From: a virus
Lineage: Duplodnaviria > Heunggongvirae > Uroviricota > Caudoviricetes
DNA length: 39,816 nucleotides
IMG/VR virus record: IMGVR_UViG_2541047807_000001
Location: 1-39,816 of that record
Strand: one strand, 5' to 3'
In this document: in pieces, positions 12,071 through 34,655 of the stretch
Layout of the letters: the number at the start of each line of letters is the position of its first letter
Position numbering within the stretch: position 1 is the first letter of the stretch
The notes under the pieces: generated by a model
Seen by the model: only the letters and a program-made list of their open reading frames with translations
Databases searched by the model: none
Told to the model about the DNA's origin: nothing
Position numbers and translations under genes: made by a program

Positions 12071-12175
12071 GTTAAATCTCCAGATAGTCGCAGCACCCGT
12101 TGCGCCGCATATCTGGTTATTCTATTACCCATAAAACCATATATGGATAGAAAGACTGTGAATATGAATAGATAT

Positions 12176-12190
12176 TACCTTTCAGGTAAT
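12176..12190. promoter_or_regulatory. Repressor operator-type site TTACCtttcaGGTAA
   Basis: Perfect TTACC-N5-GGTAA palindrome upstream of the antirepressor-like gene. Confidence 0.5.
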
Positions 12191-12228
12191 TTGCAAAACG
12201 TGCTGGATAGCAAACAAATTATTTGCTA

Positions 12229-12244
12229 CTGTATAAATATACAG
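12229..12244. promoter_or_regulatory. LexA (SOS) box
   Basis: CTGTATAAATATACAG matches the CTGT-N8-ACAG LexA consensus, about 20 nt upstream of the ORF start. Confidence 0.65.
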
Positions 12245-12266
12245 TTATTGCATGGAGAAGATTAAG

Positions 12267-12524
12267 ATGCAGCAGTATCACTATCCACTGGAAGACGGAT
12301 TTACCGAAAGGATTCACACGCCGGGAGGCGTCAGGTCACTGGTGGAGGGATCGCACTTGATGAAATTACTCCGGGATCTCGATAAGGATGGATTTAATGT
12401 CGATGGCCCACTTGCCGAACTGACTGCACTGATTAACTACGTCACCAGCTCACAGATGTCTATGCAGGATCTGCAAACACATCTCGACTATTGTGCCGAA
12501 CAATTACGAAAGCAAACCAGATAA
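12267..12524 (+). CDS. Small antirepressor-like protein (stand-alone paralogue of the antirepressor C-terminal domain)
   Basis: HLMKLLRDLDKDGFNVDGPLAELTALINYVTSSQMSMQDLQTH parallels LLMNLLNQLQEDGHDVSGAAAELTTMFCYIVGVSKCLRDIQTH in the downstream antirepressor. Preceded by the LexA box. Confidence 0.5.
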   Translation: MQQYHYPLEDGFTERIHTPGGVRSLVEGSHLMKLLRDLDKDGFNVDGPLAELTALINYVTSSQMSMQDLQTHLDYCAEQLRKQTR

Positions 12525-12555
12525 GGTTTGCAATTACCAAGTGGAGTGCTTATAT

Positions 12556-12570
12556 TTACCTTTGCGGTAA
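12556..12570. promoter_or_regulatory. Repressor operator-type site TTACCtttgcGGTAA
   Basis: Perfect TTACC-N5-GGTAA between the two antirepressor-like genes. Confidence 0.45.
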
Positions 12571-12663
12571 ATTTACATCGCACTCCTCTTGTGCCATAGT
12601 AATCAGGCACTGGCAAAATCCAGTGCCGGGATTGGCGTCCCGGGTTACTACAGAGGCACATAT

Positions 12664-12687
12664 GCCGCATAAGCGGTTTTTTTATGT
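12664..12687 (+). terminator. Rho-independent terminator
   Basis: ccgc-ataa-gcgg hairpin followed by a run of seven T. Confidence 0.5.
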
Positions 12688-12837
12688 GTAAAGCGCACCT
12701 ATTCTATGGTGGGCTGTGTGGGGGCACCGAAAGGTGCGCCGGGTCCTTTGTAGCCGGTTACGCCAACCCTGCACAGTTCACCACCAACCGATTGGCGTCG
12801 GTAGTGGTGATTAACCTAACTACAAAGGTGATCACTA

Positions 12838-13523
12838 TGACTGCTAACGTAACCCCATCTGTTTTTCATTTTGAATCAGAAGCAACCATTCGAGCCATTG
12901 TTATTGATGGAAATCCTTGGTTTGTTGCCAAAGACGTTATTAAAGCTCTTCAACTGACAAACCCCACTATGTCAATAAAATCTCTTGATGATGATGAAAG
13001 GGCTAAATTTAACTTAGGCCGTCAAGGCGAAACCAATATTATCAACGAGTCAGGCCTCTACACACTGATCCTCCGCTGCCGCGACGCAGTGACACCAGGC
13101 ACTATCCCCTACCGCTTTCGTAAATGGGTTACAGGTGAGGTTCTTCCTCAGATCCGCCGCACCGGAAGTTACATTAAAAACTCGCTCCCGCAGGAAGAAC
13201 GCATAAAGATGGTTGCCGACCAGGTAGCCAACGCCATAGCATCAGCAGTGATGCAGGCAATGAAGATAGAGAACAAAACCTACAGTGCCCCGCTGAAGCC
13301 CGGCTACCGCAGTCTGATTCATTCGCCGTCGGGTGTTCTCGGCCTGACGGAGAACTCACTGCTGATGAATCTGCTGAACCAGTTACAGGAAGACGGGCAT
13401 GACGTATCGGGCGCGGCGGCGGAGTTGACCACCATGTTCTGCTACATCGTCGGTGTGAGCAAATGCCTGCGTGATATCCAGACCCACGCGGAGTACATCA
13501 ACGACAAGGCAGGGTTCTTCTGA
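12838..13523 (+). CDS. Antirepressor (Bro-N / AntA-type N-terminal domain)
   Basis: FHFESEATIRAIVIDGNPWFVAKDVIKALQLTNP is a Bro-N/Ant signature. RBS aaggtga before ATG 12838; the longer ORF-track start at 12684 lies in the terminator T-run. Confidence 0.7.
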
Positions 13524-14623: not shown

Positions 14624-14659
14624 AAACAAGGCCGCGAAAGCGGCCTGTGACATGTCACG

Positions 14660-28721: not shown

Positions 28722-29018
28722 TCACTCCTGTTCACTGGCCTCTTTGGCCATCTTCAAATACTGTTCAGGGCAATGCGCCATAACGCGCTGAAACAGTTCA
28801 AGCGCCAGATTGCGTTGCCCCTCATTAAATGCCATTGCCATAGCGTCCATCGGTGAGATAGCGGAAAACACACGGCCTTTCTCCAGCACCGACCAGACAA
28901 CGCGCCGCCCCTGTTCACTGCTCATGACAAAGCGAATGTCATCAATTTCACGCTGCGCCATGTCACGTTGCTTACGGGCGTTTTCTTCTTTCAGTTGATC
29001 GTCTTCGTAATCTGTCAT
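28722..29018 (-). CDS. Hypothetical protein
   Basis: 98-aa ORF coupled between the portal and scaffold genes. Confidence 0.45.
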   Translation of the reverse strand: MTDYEDDQLKEENARKQRDMAQREIDDIRFVMSSEQGRRVVWSVLEKGRVFSAISPMDAMAMAFNEGQRNLALELFQRVMAHCPEQYLKMAKEASEQE

Positions 29019-30694
29019 TGTGATTGCCCACCCTGACCACTAACTGCATTCGCCATAGCTGACAAAACACTCGGATCCGAAGTTTTAGCTTCGCTTAGCG
29101 TCTTGGCGCCCTGTGCCGCCGCCATCCCCATCGCCATCATTTGTTGCTGCTGTTGCTGCTGTGCCCGTTGCTGGCGAGCCTGCTCAACCTGTTCCTGCGG
29201 AACAATGACGGTTGGAGACACTCCGGACATATCAGCGAATGCATCGATCGCCTGATCAACGTTGAGTTTGTCGAGAGCTTCTGGTTTCGCTTGCGCAAGT
29301 TGACCAATGAAGTTGACCGTGGATGCCAGACTGGACAGGCCGATAGACTTCTGCGCCTGAGCCATGACGGAAATGTATTCGACCTTCAGGGGCATACCTT
29401 CCATCACGTCTGGCGGTGGCGGCAGCATGTTTTTACGCACCATCATCGAGAAAGAGCGATCAATGAGAGGATTAAGACATTCGTCGTTCAGGCGCTCCAG
29501 AACCGGCCCCAACATCAGAAGTTTTTCTTCTTTCATTTCGATCACCGCTTCAACAGGCATCGAGCGGGTATTGATGTTCTGCAACATCATGAACAGATCG
29601 ACAAAGTAGGCGCTGTTAATGATTTGACGAGTGTCCTGAATGTCTGCTACCAAATCTGCTGTACTGGGGTTAACCAGATAAGCAGGCCTGAAGCCATCCT
29701 GACCAGTAATCTGATCGATATACGTGATGTCGCCAGGAAGAAGGGAGGCGCGCTGATTCTTGAGGGAAGTCGGAGCAACCATCGGCGGATTGGTTGCTTT
29801 ATCAATCAACTGCGACTTGCGCTTCTGGAGAAGCTGCAATGCCTTAACAGGTCCAAGCGCCAGCATACCCGGGCATGATGATCCATAAACATCTTCGCCG
29901 TTAACTTCCCAGCGCGGAGCCATAATTGGAAACTCATCGAATCCGGACTCACGCAACAACTTGTCGTTATCGCCACCAACCTCGTAATAAACCGATTTGA
30001 ATGGCTTGTTCTTGCTATCCAGCTTCGATGTATCGCGGTCAATGTTCGGGTAAACCGAATGCATCACTTCAATCCACTTCTCGTAGGTGCCGCTTTCCCA
30101 CATGCTTTTTACGGATTCGCTGACGTTATTTAGCCCGAACTCCTGAACAAGCTGACGAACAGTCATAGAGAACTTGCGAAAACAGGTGTCCACACTGCCA
30201 CGAGGTGAGTTAGCCAGGTAGTAACTGCCTATCGGGAATGGCATTGTGCGAATGATGTCCTCGTCATCCTCCAGCACTGCCATTGCACCAGTGCTGTATG
30301 TGCCGAGGCTTCCGTATAACTGCGGCAGCGACTGATAGAGATTCGACTTATTGAACATATCGTTCATGCGGTTCTGCACGGCCTCAAGCCACAACTTAAC
30401 AGGGCCATAATCCATCATTTCAGGATCTGGCGTAGCCAGGCGAAACCACGGACGCGCGGGGCTTGTGATGCCTGACATCATGCCGCTGGCGAGAGTGCGC
30501 GCCGCCATAGTCCCGGTCGAATCAATAATGCGTGTATTGCGTCGATCGTTACGGTTGACCTCAGAAGTCAGAAAGCGGGAACCACGCGGGTTGATGTAAT
30601 CACTCAACTCGCGCCAGTGCGGCTCGAACGACTGACGCTCGCTTTCAAGTTGTGCGAACTGTTTGTTCAATCGCTCTTTAGTTGTTTCCGCCAT
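29015..30694 (-). CDS. Portal protein (podovirus head-to-tail connector type)
   Basis: 559 aa, N-terminus MAETTKERLNKQFAQLESERQSFEPHWRELSDYINP, Gln-rich C-terminal tail; size and position fit a portal. Confidence 0.8.
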   Translation of the reverse strand: MAETTKERLNKQFAQLESERQSFEPHWRELSDYINPRGSRFLTSEVNRNDRRNTRIIDSTGTMAARTLASGMMSGITSPARPWFRLATPDPEMMDYGPVKLWLEAVQNRMNDMFNKSNLYQSLPQLYGSLGTYSTGAMAVLEDDEDIIRTMPFPIGSYYLANSPRGSVDTCFRKFSMTVRQLVQEFGLNNVSESVKSMWESGTYEKWIEVMHSVYPNIDRDTSKLDSKNKPFKSVYYEVGGDNDKLLRESGFDEFPIMAPRWEVNGEDVYGSSCPGMLALGPVKALQLLQKRKSQLIDKATNPPMVAPTSLKNQRASLLPGDITYIDQITGQDGFRPAYLVNPSTADLVADIQDTRQIINSAYFVDLFMMLQNINTRSMPVEAVIEMKEEKLLMLGPVLERLNDECLNPLIDRSFSMMVRKNMLPPPPDVMEGMPLKVEYISVMAQAQKSIGLSSLASTVNFIGQLAQAKPEALDKLNVDQAIDAFADMSGVSPTVIVPQEQVEQARQQRAQQQQQQQMMAMGMAAAQGAKTLSEAKTSDPSVLSAMANAVSGQGGQSQ

Positions 30695-30708: not shown

Positions 30709-30915
30709 TTACTGACCAAGTAGCGTTTTACCGCTGGTATTAGCGGTTGATGTGTCGCCCTGAGAACCGGTAAGCAGCGTAGAACTACGACCAGCAGCAG
30801 CGCGACGGCGACGTGTTTCTTCGTCGCGGGCATCAACAACAGCGGCATCCTGCTCCTGTGGTGCTGCCTGAACTTCTGGTGTTGCAGGCACTGATGGTGA
30901 GCTACCCATGCACAT
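30709..30915 (-). CDS. Small hypothetical protein upstream of the portal
   Basis: 68-aa low-complexity ORF with SD GGAG about 9 nt upstream. Confidence 0.3.
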   Translation of the reverse strand: MCMGSSPSVPATPEVQAAPQEQDAAVVDARDEETRRRRAAAGRSSTLLTGSQGDTSTANTSGKTLLGQ

Positions 30916-30983
30916 ATCAATGACTCCGTACGCAATTAAATTATTACCAATTTAACCACATATGATTTATTTATCGTAGATAG

Positions 30984-31020
30984 TTGACATTTAACGCACG
31001 AATTATTACCTTTCAGGTAA
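30984..31020 (+). promoter_or_regulatory. Promoter-like element with overlapping repressor operator
   Basis: TTGACA (30984-30989), 17-nt spacer, weak -10 TACCTT overlapping TTACCtttcaGGTAA (31006-31020). Reads toward the leader, tRNA and moron gene. Confidence 0.4.
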
Positions 31021-31342
31021 GCAAAGAGTTCATTCCGGTTATTAACCTGACTGGCTTGTCGTTAAATTGAACAGGTGGAGTGAGCTTTTATTTTGAGCAG
31101 TACGGCGTATGGCACATGCGCCGATAGCGGTCTGGATACGTTTAAGGGGCACCCTCCCTTGCTCGGGCAAACGAACCAGGTAGCCGGAATGTGCAAGTCG
31201 AGCGGTTTTATTCCGCGCACGGGGATTCACCATCCCGGCGATTCGGTGTGACGCCTCGGAAGAGACGAGGGTACAACGATGAGAGCATTTATGGAGCCGC
31301 GACAAAGTGTGGCGCCTTAACAGGCTAAGTGCTCTCAGCGTT

Positions 31343-31419
31343 GTGGCATTAGCTCAGTTGGACAGAGCAACCGCCTTCTAAGCGGTTGGTTGCAGGTTCG
31401 AATCCTGCATGCCACGCCA
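31343..31419 (+). tRNA. tRNA-Arg (anticodon TCT)
   Basis: Hand-folded cloverleaf: acceptor GTGGCAT/ATGCCAC, D-stem GCTC/GAGC, anticodon stem ACCGC/GCGGT with loop CTTCTAA, T-stem GCAGG/CCTGC with loop TTCGAAT, 3' GCCA. 77 nt. Confidence 0.85.
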
Positions 31420-31462
31420 GAATCACGCCTAAGGACCGTGATGCCAGAAGTTCCAGGTGCTT

Positions 31463-31506
31463 GGCGGTGATGGTTTCCCTTGAAGGACTATCACCGCCCT
31501 TTTTAC
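31463..31506 (+). terminator. Terminator-like hairpin after the tRNA
   Basis: ggcggtgatggtttcccttgaaggactatcaccgcc stem-loop followed by ctttttac. Confidence 0.45.
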
Positions 31507-31582
31507 AGCAGGACGCCATTGCGATGACTTCATGCTGTAAACCAGTACAGCCACGGAAGGCATAACTCATTGCTTCCAGTTC

Positions 31583-31606
31583 GCCCGGTTCGCCGGGCAT
31601 TTTTTT
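31583..31606 (+). terminator. Intrinsic terminator / attenuator-like hairpin immediately upstream of the moron RBS
   Basis: gcccgg-ttcg-ccgggc hairpin followed by at plus seven T, ending about 11 nt before ATG 31618 with only the RBS aaggtgag between. Confidence 0.5.
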
Positions 31607-31617
31607 AAGGTGAGATC

Positions 31618-32037
31618 ATGAAGACAATTGATATGTTGGCTAAGTATCTAAATGAATGGCCATTAAAATATTCTCGTATCGTTCAGGCTGAAGACTGCAT
31701 TTTTTATGGCGTTTTTGCTGGTAATGAAATGCATTACGAAGTAATTCAGAGTGAGGGACTGGCCGGGTTAACTCTTAGCGAAGACCATGGTACTAGCGTT
31801 ACGTTCCATGACTGGATAACAGCACAACGTTATGAAATGGAAAAAGGCGATGTGTTTGATATTTCTCGATCTGTTTACGCTAAAGCAAAAAGTGATAATG
31901 ATTACATGAGCGAACACTTATACAACATGAAGTTACAATGCCTGCATGCGGCGCTTATTCAGAATGGGCACTTCGATAAAACAAGTGCCATCAATATTGC
32001 GGAAGCCATCAACGCTGGATTTAATGCCATTAAGTAA
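31618..32037 (+). CDS. Hypothetical moron protein (AT-rich, opposite orientation inside the late operon)
   Basis: 139-aa ORF with RBS aaggtgag; AT-rich; followed by a palindrome and terminator. Confidence 0.55.
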   Translation: MKTIDMLAKYLNEWPLKYSRIVQAEDCIFYGVFAGNEMHYEVIQSEGLAGLTLSEDHGTSVTFHDWITAQRYEMEKGDVFDISRSVYAKAKSDNDYMSEHLYNMKLQCLHAALIQNGHFDKTSAINIAEAINAGFNAIK

Positions 32038-32057
32038 CACCGTGACATGTCACAAAC

Positions 32058-32084
32058 AGCCAGCCGATGAGCTGGCTTTGTTTT
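32058..32084. terminator. Bidirectional rho-independent terminator between the moron and large terminase
   Basis: agccagc-cgatga-gctggct hairpin flanked by AAA on one side and TTTGTTTT on the other. Confidence 0.55.
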
Positions 32085-32127
32085 ATCCTCATCAGAGGAT
32101 ATCAACGACATTATCCCCACCAGCGGA

Positions 32128-33603
32128 TTAAGCATAGGGATCGTAATCTGTGATGGCCTTGCCTTGCTGGTTCTGCTGCCCGGGAATTCGCAGACGCTTC
32201 GACACAGGGAACGCAAACGTCAGCAGTAGCGCATCGCCTTTACCCGGCGAACGCCCAAGCCGCTCCTTGATATCTTCCTTCGGTTCGATAACGATTTTAC
32301 CGTCCACGCGAACTTTGTACTCTGCCGCCGACAGGTCGTCTGCTGTTTCCTGGTCATCCAGCATGCCGCCCAGCCTCAGCCATGTCTTGCATGAATTGAA
32401 CATCTCCCCACGCTTGTTAAGCATCTGCGGGTCAGTAGACGCGCCACCGAACGGAACAAGTTGCCATGTACGACCCCAGCCATCACCGATTGACTTCAGA
32501 CCAGTTCCGTAACCGAAGTCGATGAACACTGCGTCAGCCTGGTACTGGTCTTCAAAGTCAGCGATACGCTTCGCCATAATCAGATCGTCGGTAGTCTTGT
32601 TGCCAGTCCACAGCACCTTACTGTGTAGCCCCTGCCGTAGGTATATCACCGCGTCATCAACGCCTGAATATGCCGGGTCAACACCGATTATCACCGGAGC
32701 ATGCGCCACCTGCGCAGCGGTTACCACCCGTTTCATTGCCTCATCAGTAAGACCGGTAGGGATAAACTGCAATTCAGATGCATCAGGGAATATGCCGCGC
32801 ACACGGATTTTAACGAAGTCGCTGTCTTCCCCGTAGTCATCAACCCATTTCTGCAACTGCTGTTTGTTAGTGCCTTCCACCGTCCGGCTGTCAATCTGCG
32901 CAGTTTTCCAGCGGTGTTTATATTTGCGGAAACATTCGCGGAAACGCCCGGTGTTACGTGTAGGGTTTCCGAACGCCACCCAGATAATCTCAGTGTCTTC
33001 GTCCGTAAGCGCACCCTCAGCAACTTCCCACACCAGATCCGCAATGTTCGACGCTTCATCGAATACCACGATGATGCGTTTGCGCTCGTTGTGTAGTCCG
33101 GCAAATGCCTCAGTGTTGTGCTCAGACCAGGGGATTGCGTCAGCTCGCCAACGCTTGTCGTGCCCAGGGTCATTGCTGTACATCGCGGTAGCGGTACAGG
33201 TAAACCAGTCTTTCGTGATAGCAAGGTTCGACCACTTGATAATTTCCGGCCAGGTCTTCGTTCGTAGCTGGTTGTCGGTGTTGGCAGTCACCACGACCTT
33301 ACAATCCTCGCAAGTGGACATGCCCCAGTTGATCAACATTGAGATGAATGCTGATTTACCAATACCGTGACCCGAAGCACGTGCCAGCATAAGCGGCTGA
33401 TAGCGCGTCTCGGGATTCTGCAGGTGATCACGTATCTCTCGGAACGCATCAGCCTGCCACTGACGTGGGCCGGTAGCATGTGCCAGTTCAGTCCCCTCTT
33501 CCCCCCACGGGAACGCATAGAGGGAATAGCCAAGCGGATCGTGAGTGAACCCTGCAATATCCTCGATCAATTGCTCTTCAGGAGATAACGCTGTATCTGT
33601 CAC
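32128..33603 (-). CDS. Terminase large subunit
   Basis: 491 aa. Walker A-like GHGIGKS near the N-terminus with VVFDEASNI (Walker B-like), and a C-terminal nuclease-like region. Follows the small terminase with overlapping start. Confidence 0.85.
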   Translation of the reverse strand: MTDTALSPEEQLIEDIAGFTHDPLGYSLYAFPWGEEGTELAHATGPRQWQADAFREIRDHLQNPETRYQPLMLARASGHGIGKSAFISMLINWGMSTCEDCKVVVTANTDNQLRTKTWPEIIKWSNLAITKDWFTCTATAMYSNDPGHDKRWRADAIPWSEHNTEAFAGLHNERKRIIVVFDEASNIADLVWEVAEGALTDEDTEIIWVAFGNPTRNTGRFRECFRKYKHRWKTAQIDSRTVEGTNKQQLQKWVDDYGEDSDFVKIRVRGIFPDASELQFIPTGLTDEAMKRVVTAAQVAHAPVIIGVDPAYSGVDDAVIYLRQGLHSKVLWTGNKTTDDLIMAKRIADFEDQYQADAVFIDFGYGTGLKSIGDGWGRTWQLVPFGGASTDPQMLNKRGEMFNSCKTWLRLGGMLDDQETADDLSAAEYKVRVDGKIVIEPKEDIKERLGRSPGKGDALLLTFAFPVSKRLRIPGQQNQQGKAITDYDPYA

Positions 33604-34196
33604 TGATTGCCATCCTGACGTTCTTTCAGTCTCTTCCTGGCTGCCGCTATGCGATCAGCAATTGTCACATTCACATTAACATCCAGGCGTTCTTTGAATG
33701 CATTGACATCGACGTGCTTACCAATCAGCTCAAGGTTCTTCACCTTGTCAGGCCATTTAATTTTTTTGAGGATTGTCTCTATCGAATCCTCGTTCATGTT
33801 CATGATGGTCGATGACAGATCAAAGCCGCTAAGCGTAGTGCGCCAGATTTTCGGCCACTCGCGGATTGGCTTAAGGCTCCCATCGTCGTTGAGGATGTCG
33901 ATCACGTCCATCTGGTCGATCTCCACCAGGCGCATGAGAACGTAATCAGCACTGACGCGCATTCGTTTGTTGCGCTCCTCCATCAACTCGGCAATCCGTT
34001 TTTGAATGCGTTCATCGCGCATCATGACACTGGCTTTAACTGCCGCTGTATTTGGGGAGAATCCTGCATTAATCGCTGCCTGAGTCTGGTTTTCAGGCGT
34101 TTTGATGTATGACTGGCAATAAGCCTCCTGCATTGCTGTTAGTGGCTTAAATTGCGTTGATTTGCGTTTATAGGTTTTAGGTTCAGCAGGCATCAT
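33600..34196 (-). CDS. Terminase small subunit
   Basis: MPAEPKTYKRKSTQFKPLTAMQEAYCQSYIKTPENQTQAAINAGFSPNTAAVKAS is a small-terminase N-terminal pattern. Start ATG at 34196 or 34193; the longer ORF-track start includes 5' UTR repeats. Confidence 0.65.
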   Translation of the reverse strand: MMPAEPKTYKRKSTQFKPLTAMQEAYCQSYIKTPENQTQAAINAGFSPNTAAVKASVMMRDERIQKRIAELMEERNKRMRVSADYVLMRLVEIDQMDVIDILNDDGSLKPIREWPKIWRTTLSGFDLSSTIMNMNEDSIETILKKIKWPDKVKNLELIGKHVDVNAFKERLDVNVNVTIADRIAAARKRLKERQDGNQ

Positions 34197-34313
34197 AACC
34201 ACCGTGGTAATAGTTACCGTTGTGGTAATAGTACCATGCAAAATAAAGCCGCCATAGTTGGCGGCAGTATTCAAAACCATCAAATTCATCATGCATAATC
34301 TACTCGTGACATG

Positions 34314-34655
34314 TCACACTATTAATTTCGTTTCATGCCAGCCTTTAGTCACCCAGCATTGCGAGTCACCATTACACGGGCATGAATTAACGGGAACTCT
34401 CTCGCCGCACTTACCGCAACATTTTCTGCTGATCGATTTTATACGCCCGCGCACGCGTGCATCATCCTGGCGGATCAGTAACGCTATATACTCACCAAAT
34501 TCGTAAGGCGCACGCCCGGGGCGACGCGTGGCACAGTTACGCTCCAGCATTTCAATTTCCTGAGCATCAAGCACAATTTCCAGCTTACGCACACCAGATG
34601 CAGCTTGTCTGGCTCTCTGAGCGGCTTTGCGCTCTGCTGCTGATTTAGCCATCAA
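34314..34655 (-). CDS. Hypothetical protein with Cys-rich C-terminus
   Basis: 113 aa ending in CCGKCGERVPVNSCPCNGDSQC; last gene before the late operon. Confidence 0.45.
   Translation of the reverse strand: MMAKSAAERKAAQRARQAASGVRKLEIVLDAQEIEMLERNCATRRPGRAPYEFGEYIALLIRQDDARVRGRIKSISRKCCGKCGERVPVNSCPCNGDSQCWVTKGWHETKLIV

Follow-up and report, generated by a model that had tools for sequence, protein, structure and literature searches.

A new family of conserved, pseudoknotted leader RNAs in epsilon15/phiV10-like podophages, lambdoid phages and P1-like phage-plasmids, with a possible role in processive antitermination

The DNA analysed here, a stretch of 39,816 nucleotides (nt) that makes up IMG/VR record IMGVR_UViG_2541047807_000001 (positions 1-39,816; hereafter the window), is an E. 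coli prophage of the epsilon15/phiV10-like (Uetakevirus) type. Between its large terminase gene and a gp3-like open reading frame (ORF), where the neighbouring genes all lie on the minus strand, there is a unit on the plus strand. A sequence-only reading of the window had placed such a unit between the large terminase and portal genes, a position that Pfam matches and homolog annotations confirm, and had listed as its parts a promoter, an operator, a leader, a tRNA, two hairpins, an AT-rich gene, a palindrome and a final terminator, all of which we found. Here we show by sequence comparison that the leader (31099-31343) belongs to a family of conserved, non-coding RNAs with a pseudoknot, made up of a core of ~170 nt and an optional closing helix; the same comparison puts the core (31099-31278) on the plus strand, at the head of a transcript under repressor control. 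The family is new, being undescribed in Rfam 15 and in the literature that could be searched (put/HK639, processive antitermination, the P1 ban operon and yfdP), the coverage of which is incomplete. Positions 30900-32130 are 99% identical to many E. coli chromosomes and, over part of their length, 95-99% identical to phiV10, TL-2011b and related phages. The elements of this island are as follows.

30984-30989, plus strand: -35 hexamer TTGACA of the island promoter, read from the sequence
31006-31020, both strands: repressor operator palindrome TTACCTTTCAGGTAA, overlapping the -10
31007-31012, plus strand: weak -10-like hexamer TACCTT within the operator, matching TATAAT at three of six positions, including A2 and T6
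31021-31098, plus strand: 5' leader module with a hairpin at 31035-31054 (from a scan) and a GTCGTTAAAT motif; a homologous module occurs in Tyrion and PAT1
31099-31278, plus strand: structured RNA core, the sole match to our covariance model R1 in the window (149.7 bits, E 5.7e-46)
31103-31123, plus strand: helix P1, hairpin CGGCGUAUG-GCA-CAUGCGCCG, with covariation
31127-31184, plus strand: helix P2 (GC..UCUGG / CCAGG..GC) around a variable arm with a YCCYUU loop motif
31179-31197, plus strand: invariant 19-mer GGUAGCCGGAAUGUGCAAG, unchanged in the 30 diverse sequences of an alignment
31202-31216, plus strand: variable hairpin P3 (GCGG-UUUUAUU-CCGC), locally self-complementary, differing in length and sequence across the family
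31222-31236, plus strand: helix P4 (GGGAU-UCACC-AUCCC), three pairs with two-sided changes
31228-31248, plus strand: pseudoknot of the P4 loop CACC (31228-31231) with GGUG (31245-31248)
31254-31270, plus strand: helix P5 (CCUCG-GAAGAGA-CGAGG), four of five pairs with two-sided changes and 98.7% of alignment cells paired
31274-31343, plus strand: long-range closing helix P6 (CAACG.AUGAGAGCA ... UGCUCUCA.GCGUUG) with internal hairpins, from RNAalifold and minimum-free-energy folding
31343-31419, plus strand: tRNA-Arg(UCU) with encoded CCA (ARAGORN, tct; Rfam RF00005, 73.2 bits against a gathering score of 29)
31422-31443, plus strand: hairpin AUCACG...CGUGAU, conserved in Tyrion, PAT1 and locus L047
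31461-31506, plus strand: terminator T1, UUGGCGG-stem-CCGCC followed by CUUUUUAC (scan: 31463-31498, 14 bp, then CTTTTT)
31507-31582, plus strand: conserved inter-terminator segment, whose hairpin UUUACAGCA...UGCUGUAAA overlaps the T1 tail
31583-31606, plus strand: terminator T2, GCCCGG-UUCG-CCGGGC followed by an A and seven U (scan: 31583-31598, six G-C pairs)
31607-31613, plus strand: Shine-Dalgarno sequence AAGGUGA adjoining the T2 U-run, read from the sequence
31618-32037, plus strand: variable cargo gene of 139 amino acids (aa), phrog_4846 by PHROG match
32042-32053, both strands: 12-bp perfect palindrome GTGACATGTCAC, between the cargo gene and T3
32058-32084, plus strand: terminator T3, the end of the island (scan: 32058-32077)

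Support for the fold comes from two alignments. In a MAFFT alignment of 30 diverse sequences, a hand-derived structure composed of P1, P2, P4, P5 and the pseudoknot is paired in 94.3% of cells, as against 27-46% when the partners are slid, and 12 pairs show two-sided changes; none of 500 shuffles attains the observed values. An alignment of 77 distinct sequences fitted to R1, of which the MAFFT alignment is independent, gives the same picture, with 95.4% of cells paired and 14 compensatory pairs, again at values that none of 500 shuffles attains (slid controls over both alignments, 27-47% paired). Base changes can be followed helix by helix: P1 swaps a G-C for an A-U pair in 30 of the 77 sequences and also has C-G and U-A variants, at the P2 pair 31133:31178, 31 sequences have U-A and 44 have C-G, and the pseudoknot is paired in 99.7% of cells, with covariation at three of its four pairs, a C-G to A-U change in 10 sequences and, in contig L041, a complete swap to UGGUC/GACCA. 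P6, for which 39 distinct strand pairs include multiple compensatory variants, closes the RNA in most members and is missing from the aligned P1-like copies. Running through this framework are the invariant blocks UAUGGCACAUG, AGCGGUC, the 19-mer GGUAGCCGGAAUGUGCAAG, UCACCA, GGCG..GGUGUGAC and GGAAGAG, with arms of variable length and sequence between them; a 17-mer taken from the 19-mer retrieved at least 120 viral contigs from IMG/VR. R1 finds exactly one copy per locus in 100 related loci. The leader is present as the sequence-only reading had it, as part of a tRNA and moron island; the accessory role which that description gave it does not hold, the leader being the conserved element.

No reading frame is uninterrupted across the 77 distinct homologs, in agreement with the earlier description of the leader as non-coding. 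The ORFs of 52, 45 and 87 aa that the window offers were rejected as coding candidates, their frames being broken in 50-77 of the 77 homologs; the lengths of the core are not divisible by three, and no PHROG match was returned. G-U pairs, together with the lack of a frame that stays open across homologs, indicate that the functional product is the plus-strand RNA. Several ORFs annotated over the RNA, such as mEp460_037 (L003 2443-2811, minus strand) and mEp390_036 (L012 2011-2253), which overlap the core, are therefore probably spurious; mEp390_036, the one scanned, has no PHROG match. The covariance-model scan of the leader that the sequence-only reading had proposed matched no family: in Rfam 15 the window, mEp460 and P1 versions of the core have no match at E up to 10, to riboswitch, ribozyme or any other families, and at the gathering threshold the whole window returns tRNA, C4 and isrK only.

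A similarity search with 31102-31345 found matches in very different phages, and in nearly all records the matching DNA is unannotated. They comprise phiV10-like podophages; the lambdoid phages mEp460, cdtI, 2H10 and Ayreon and the Shiga toxin (Stx) phages of the Stx2c- and Stx2a-converting kinds; P1, P7, D6, SJ46 and RCS47 along with hundreds of P1-like plasmids; and phages of Klebsiella, Enterobacter and Salmonella, as well as one assigned to Stenotrophomonas. Of 5426 complete E. coli genomes, 1840 have the core; its occurrences number 2472, 554 of them on plasmids, and no annotated feature lies under the match in any of the 40 E. coli records listed. Strong R1 matches outside E. coli are found in Citrobacter (two genomes), Pseudescherichia vulneris (two loci) and Superficieibacter. 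A 14-mer scan of genome contigs gave mostly chance matches; a weak Pseudomonas match lies inside a coding region. In E. coli K-12 CPS-53 the RNA has been lost from the yfdO-yfdP intergenic region. Two copies touch on host assignment: a 155-bit copy on a 1.7-kb contig labelled as a Bacillota metagenome-assembled genome (L220), an assignment that probably reflects mis-binning or contamination, and the copy in the phage assigned to Stenotrophomonas (L007), which is nearly identical to Klebsiella-type copies; judging by this likeness, the host assignment of that phage may be worth a check.

The 95 unique, fully flanked contexts fall into 34 with the podophage-type operator, 54 others, mostly lambdoid, and seven that are P1-like. 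In lambdoid phages the RNA follows a CI-like repressor gene on the same strand, which is directly upstream in mEp460, Stx2a_WGPS2, 1720a-02, mEp390 and an E. coli prophage. The order in mEp460 is the cI stop, a terminator, two operators, a PL-like promoter and, ~40 nt on, the RNA; the OL-type operators (TTGCnnnnnnnGCAA), which match in type those found between cI and cro, are ~60-100 nt upstream of the RNA, and the RNA stands where lambda has N/nutL and HK022 has putL. The stretch from PL to T1 contains no ORF, and the first genes after the leader (YfdP/YfdQ-type) have no N-like PHROG match. In P1 the RNA is flanked by trnI and ban and belongs to the C1-controlled ban operon, with a tRNA-Ile 14 nt upstream.

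Repressor control is also apparent in the window. The TTGACA hexamer is separated by a 17-nt spacer from TACCTT, which we infer to be the -10 of the island promoter, and a consensus promoter scan did not call the promoter because this -10 is weak. The same arrangement, TTGAC(A/C)-17 nt-TACCTT, precedes the core in podophage-type relatives, and TTGAC -35 promoter-like sites 7-125 nt upstream of the core are commoner than in control windows. The sequence-only reading had noted that an operator overlaps this promoter, and judged by its pattern the operator TTACCTTTCAGGTAA is real: the window holds 16 sites of the form TTACCTnnnAGGTAA with at most two mismatches, against 0.9 expected, grouped around a helix-turn-helix repressor-like gene (1213-1797), and the epsilon15 record annotates a repressor-binding site at an equivalent distance from gp3. 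That record also bears the annotation 'RNaseIII' on the stretch that matches the 31021-31098 module. The single other perfect operator copy, at 12175, stands upstream of the ant/C4/isrK operon, in an immI-like module (12175-13523) in which it is followed by a 90-aa ORF and these elements:

12607-12683: isrK, Rfam match
12684-13523: BRO-N/Ant antirepressor gene
12702-12788: C4 antisense RNA, Rfam match

This operon and the RNA island are apparently under the control of one repressor, a situation like that of C1 in P1.

The tRNA that the sequence-only reading had recognized was recovered by both ARAGORN and Rfam, and G31343 serves as the last base of P6 and as tRNA position +1. Such a neighbour is present in only 41 of 119 unique contexts (29 with a tRNA-Arg(UCU) downstream and 11, the P1-likes, with a tRNA-Ile2(CAU) upstream), and with 78 contexts free of any tRNA the leader cannot be taken for a tRNA-specific feature. 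The codon-usage check that had been suggested gave 7.0 AGA and 7.0 AGG per 1000 codons, each 11% of arginine codons in what is a crude set of 53 ORFs from the window. Usage at this level, about threefold that of E. coli on average, makes a supplementary tRNA-Arg(UCU) plausible; the cargo gene itself has no AGA or AGG codon. Lambdoid leaders carry in the tRNA slot tRNA-like modules with a 7-bp acceptor-like stem, together with one to three P6-like hairpin repeats. The modules follow the pattern GTGGTGA-AT-GCGC..GCGC ... CCGG..CCGG-TCACCAC (L003 2740-2880; also L011, L013 and L047, in lambdoid and some podophage leaders) and alternate with the P6-like repeats, CACAAC..AAGAGCA...TGCTCTT..GTTGTGG, and the CACAAC and GTTGTGG words that the two share could pair either way.

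Downstream, T1, T2 and T3 are all predicted intrinsic terminators, each a G+C-rich hairpin with a U-run. The terminator-like hairpin and second terminator of the sequence-only reading correspond to the first two, predicted from sequence by the scan as well (31463-31498 and 31583-31598), and its final bidirectional terminator stands in part, a plus-strand hairpin having been found at 32058-32077 and no minus-strand site called in the region. T1 is found on the core's strand and downstream of it in 72 of 98 contexts, at distances from +230 to +755 nt, and its stem covaries; per context, the tail motif was counted 0.94 times downstream in sense orientation, 0.04 times in antisense and never upstream. 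The fold z-score for 31420-31612 is -3.7. T2-like elements, present in 32 of the 34 podophage-type-operator contexts and in five others, are always directly followed by the AAGGUGA ribosome-binding site (RBS) and then by a gene that varies among relatives (e.g. Tyrion, PAT1).

Some sequence likenesses link T1 with the core. A pyrimidine loop motif, YCCYUU(G), occurs in the apical P2 arm (31140-31165) in 111 of 118 contexts and in the T1 loop (31470-31490) in 70 of 81; it resembles the anti-Shine-Dalgarno sequence. The two loops share an identical 13-mer in SPN1S and PAT1, and the T1 5' arm UGGCGGU resembles the P2 5' strand AGCGGUC. Epsilon15 holds a 92-nt remnant (L002 2542-2633; R1 39 bits) that looks like the product of a deletion between similar P2 and T1 loops, by which most of the core and the tRNA were removed; this phage is a natural core-deleted relative.

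The gene behind T2 is AT-rich, as had been noted (39% GC against 48% for the window). Its 139-aa protein has no Pfam or PADLOC match and a PHROG match only to a family without known function, its AlphaFold model is poor (predicted local distance difference test, pLDDT, 70; predicted TM-score, pTM, 0.38), Foldseek against PDB returns nothing below E = 1, and its homologs are all hypothetical Enterobacterales proteins. The occupant of this slot differs in epsilon15, Tyrion, PAT1, SPN1S and the Klebsiella phages: epsilon15 has a member of the Gp49/Sf6-gp66 family, Tyrion a DUF551 protein and unknowns, and the window phrog_4846. In the Klebsiella phage ST512-KPC3phi13.3 (L006 2511-3032) the slot protein has a Tad2-like (Thoeris anti-defence 2) domain (PF11195, E 4e-26), and its gene sits after the RNA, the tRNA and the terminators. 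This occupant suggests that the slot may collect early anti-defence genes, and by analogy with the Tad2-like gene the cargo of the window is possibly one of these. The sequence-only reading had called this gene a moron. Replacement among relatives and atypical base composition bear this out; a private promoter, which would make it a self-contained unit expressed in the lysogen, does not appear, since none is called between T2 and the RBS (U-run/RBS junction at 31606/31607) and the sole promoter upstream carries the repressor operator. With its only promoter under operator control and no room between T2 and the RBS, the gene seems better described as early, derepression-dependent accessory cargo than as a lysogen-expressed moron.

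What, then, might the RNA do? The reading that we favour, and hold tentatively, is that it may be a cis-acting, put-like processive antiterminator that is not homologous to the put RNAs of HK022 and HK639. Upon infection or prophage derepression, RNA polymerase starting from the TTGACA promoter would make the leader RNA, which after folding would act in cis on the polymerase transcribing it, in the manner of HK022 put RNA. The polymerase would become resistant to termination and would pass T1 and T2. In lambdoid phages it would in the same way get past the terminator that stands before the early-left operon and blocks all of it, and would probably also escape termination by Rho on the long untranslated leader. 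The outcome would be early expression of the tRNA, supplying AGA decoding, and of the cargo gene, probably of accessory or anti-defence function, and an RNase P cut at the tRNA 5' end (31342/31343) would free a leader RNA with its 3' end at 31342.

Several aspects of the layout lead us to this reading. The RNA is the first product of a repressor-controlled promoter and is followed by terminators at variable distance; in the lambdoid phages the whole early-left operon is separated from PL by T1, and the interval encodes no protein antiterminator; and in the podophages two tandem terminators abut the cargo RBS and leave no room for another promoter. Independence of distance and action on several terminators are hallmarks of polymerase modification, of which HK022 put RNA is an example. 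Of the two possibilities raised by the sequence-only reading, attenuation or regulated readthrough, the second is thus retained as our best reading, and classical attenuation fits poorly with an RNA-T1 distance of 230-755 nt in which a tRNA may intervene. The put RNA itself acts far downstream, without being tethered to the transcript (PMC9378689), and a 2025 survey, which names a relative of phage 2H10, notes that lambdoid phages without N presumably rely on some put-like mechanism yet to be identified (PMC12315714). Phage 2H10 carries the leader RNA. With slightly less confidence, the family could be a new class of RNA-polymerase-modifying antiterminator RNA, structurally unrelated to put, which would be the missing early device of N-less lambdoid phages, including the Stx2a- and Stx2c-converting ones, and would have been recruited also by P1-like phage-plasmids and by epsilon15/phiV10-like podophages for early expression of tRNA and anti-defence cargo.

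A number of observations weigh against antitermination by this RNA. In P1 it lies 2.3 kb from the annotated promoter, and in P1-like and Stx2a_WGPS2-type contexts neither T1 nor any terminator detectable by the scan precedes the next gene, so the function of the RNA cannot depend on T1. There is a single copy per phage and nothing comparable for the PR-side operon, the -10 of the window's island promoter is weak, and the RNA, two to three times larger than the put RNAs of HK022 and HK639, is not detectably related to them. Words resembling boxA are not consistent (12 in 90 contexts), and recruitment of Nus factors through boxA was dropped as an explanation: some P6-like modules have the word concerned, TGCTCTTT, in their 3' strand, and the window lacks it. 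The fusion of a tRNA or tRNA-like module to the 3' end would be just as fitting for a stable RNA that is released and acts in trans, and each functional step proposed above is derived from sequence features.

Comparison with known systems brings out both the likeness to put and its limits. The leader RNA shares with HK022 putL/putR and the putL-like element of HK639 the slot of a non-coding RNA directly downstream of a repressor-controlled PL in lambdoid phages lacking N; in such phages it does lie just downstream of a repressor-controlled early promoter, and both kinds of RNA are followed by terminators that must be passed. Action at variable or long distance is established for put (PMC9378689) and only proposed for the leader RNA. 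A put element has ~70 nt and two stem-loops (that of HK639 is annotated as 126 nt), in contrast to a core of 154-186 nt that has five helices and a pseudoknot and may be extended by a closing helix of 70 nt; the leader RNA comes as one copy per phage rather than as putL and putR; and, unlike put, it is found outside PL contexts, in podophages and P1. Homology to put was rejected: R1 gave only a 6.6-bit chance match against the HK022 genome and no match against that of HK639, and with filters off the HK639 putL had negative bit scores. Words shared with put (ACGGCG..CATGCGTCG, GGAAGAG) look superficial. The slot is likewise that of N/nutL in lambda, first after PL and before the first early-left terminator, and the regulatory logic is the same; that system has an N-family gene and boxA and boxB in its leader. 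Here there is no N-like gene, the boxA 8-mer is not conserved, and the leader RNA exceeds a nut site by far in size and also in conservation.

Other prophage elements offer looser parallels. GOLLD and ROOL are structured prophage RNAs of unknown function that often adjoin tRNA genes; they measure 500-800 nt, belong to other bacterial phyla and are in Rfam. The leader RNA, unlike them, has no Rfam match and is tied to early promoters and terminators. The tRNA of the window is functional-looking, as are other phage tRNA-Arg(UCU) genes (argU-like, e.g. those of Stx phages), and its cargo is an AT-rich accessory gene that varies among relatives, as morons do; unlike the usual phage tRNA genes and morons, the two share one operator-controlled promoter and the gene stands behind two terminators.

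Rather unlikely, yet the strongest competitor, is a stable early RNA acting in trans, cut from its transcript by RNase P at the 3' tRNA or tRNA-like module (or, in P1, by 3' processing of the tRNA upstream) and binding a conserved host component for takeover or anti-defence; T1 and T2 would then end the RNA gene, and the cargo would be expressed by leaky readthrough. The 19-mer and the other blocks that stay invariant across hosts and phage types suggest a conserved host partner, and the fusion of the tRNA exactly at the end of P6, the tRNA-like modules in the lambdoid slot and the P1 tRNA-Ile 14 nt upstream would provide the means of processing. Retention of the core in P1-likes with no terminator nearby also agrees with action in trans, as does the early anti-defence neighbourhood indicated by the Tad2-like gene in the adjoining Klebsiella phage slot. 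This explanation meets its difficulty in the lambdoid phages, where an efficient T1 would silence the whole downstream early-left operon, and in the 78 of 119 contexts that have no canonical tRNA for processing.

Considerably less probable is a riboswitch-type sensor of a small molecule or ion, reporting host physiology, that would tune early transcription through T1 and T2 as an input into lysis-lysogeny or timing. The multi-helix junction, the pseudoknot and the many invariant unpaired nucleotides recall an aptamer, and the location is 5' untranslated with terminators downstream. In a transcriptional riboswitch the 3' part of the aptamer overlaps an adjacent terminator or antiterminator; here there is no adjacent expression platform, 230-755 nt with tRNAs and repeated modules separating core and T1, the P1-like copies have no terminator, and comparison with Rfam at E up to 10 brings up no riboswitch family. 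The least probable is an ordinary tRNA and accessory island whose leader is a scaffold for processing or stability (sites for RNase III, E or P, or a 5' stabiliser) or a self-cleaving element without effect on polymerase: the RNase III site annotated in the homologous 5' region of epsilon15, the long chain of hairpins through the leader and the tRNA adjacency in 41 of 119 contexts speak for it, and it falters on ~60 invariant nucleotides, a covarying pseudoknot and conservation in three lineages, none of which a stabiliser or cleavage site needs, on the lack of a tRNA beside most copies and on the failure to match any known ribozyme family.

Around the island lie the late genes.

29015-30694, minus strand: portal gene (Pfam Head-tail_con, E 2.7e-187)
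30709-30915, minus strand: gp3-like ORF, 68 aa
32128-33603, minus strand: terL, large terminase, named from homolog annotations
33600-34292, minus strand: terS, small terminase (Pfam Terminase_2)

The palindrome that the sequence-only reading saw after the cargo gene is the 12-bp GTGACATGTCAC, which occurs in three exact copies in the window (14647-14658, 32042-32053 and 34306-34317; chance expectation ~0.005), one of them 14 nt upstream of the terS start. Its location is conserved in epsilon15, Tyrion, SPN1S and many IMG/VR relatives, where a pair of copies often brackets terS and terL; candidate functions are the binding of a late-gene regulator and packaging.

A highly conserved pseudoknotted RNA is present, without annotation, in about a third of complete E. 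coli genomes, in P1, in Stx phages and in prophages of Salmonella, Klebsiella, Enterobacter and Citrobacter, and it marks a cargo slot that can be mined for early accessory and anti-defence genes. If the antitermination reading is true, it would answer the question of how lambdoid phages with neither N nor put pass their early terminators and would give structural studies a second and larger case in nature of processive antitermination by RNA alone. In Stx phages, the RNA would then be a control point for early expression and hence for induction.

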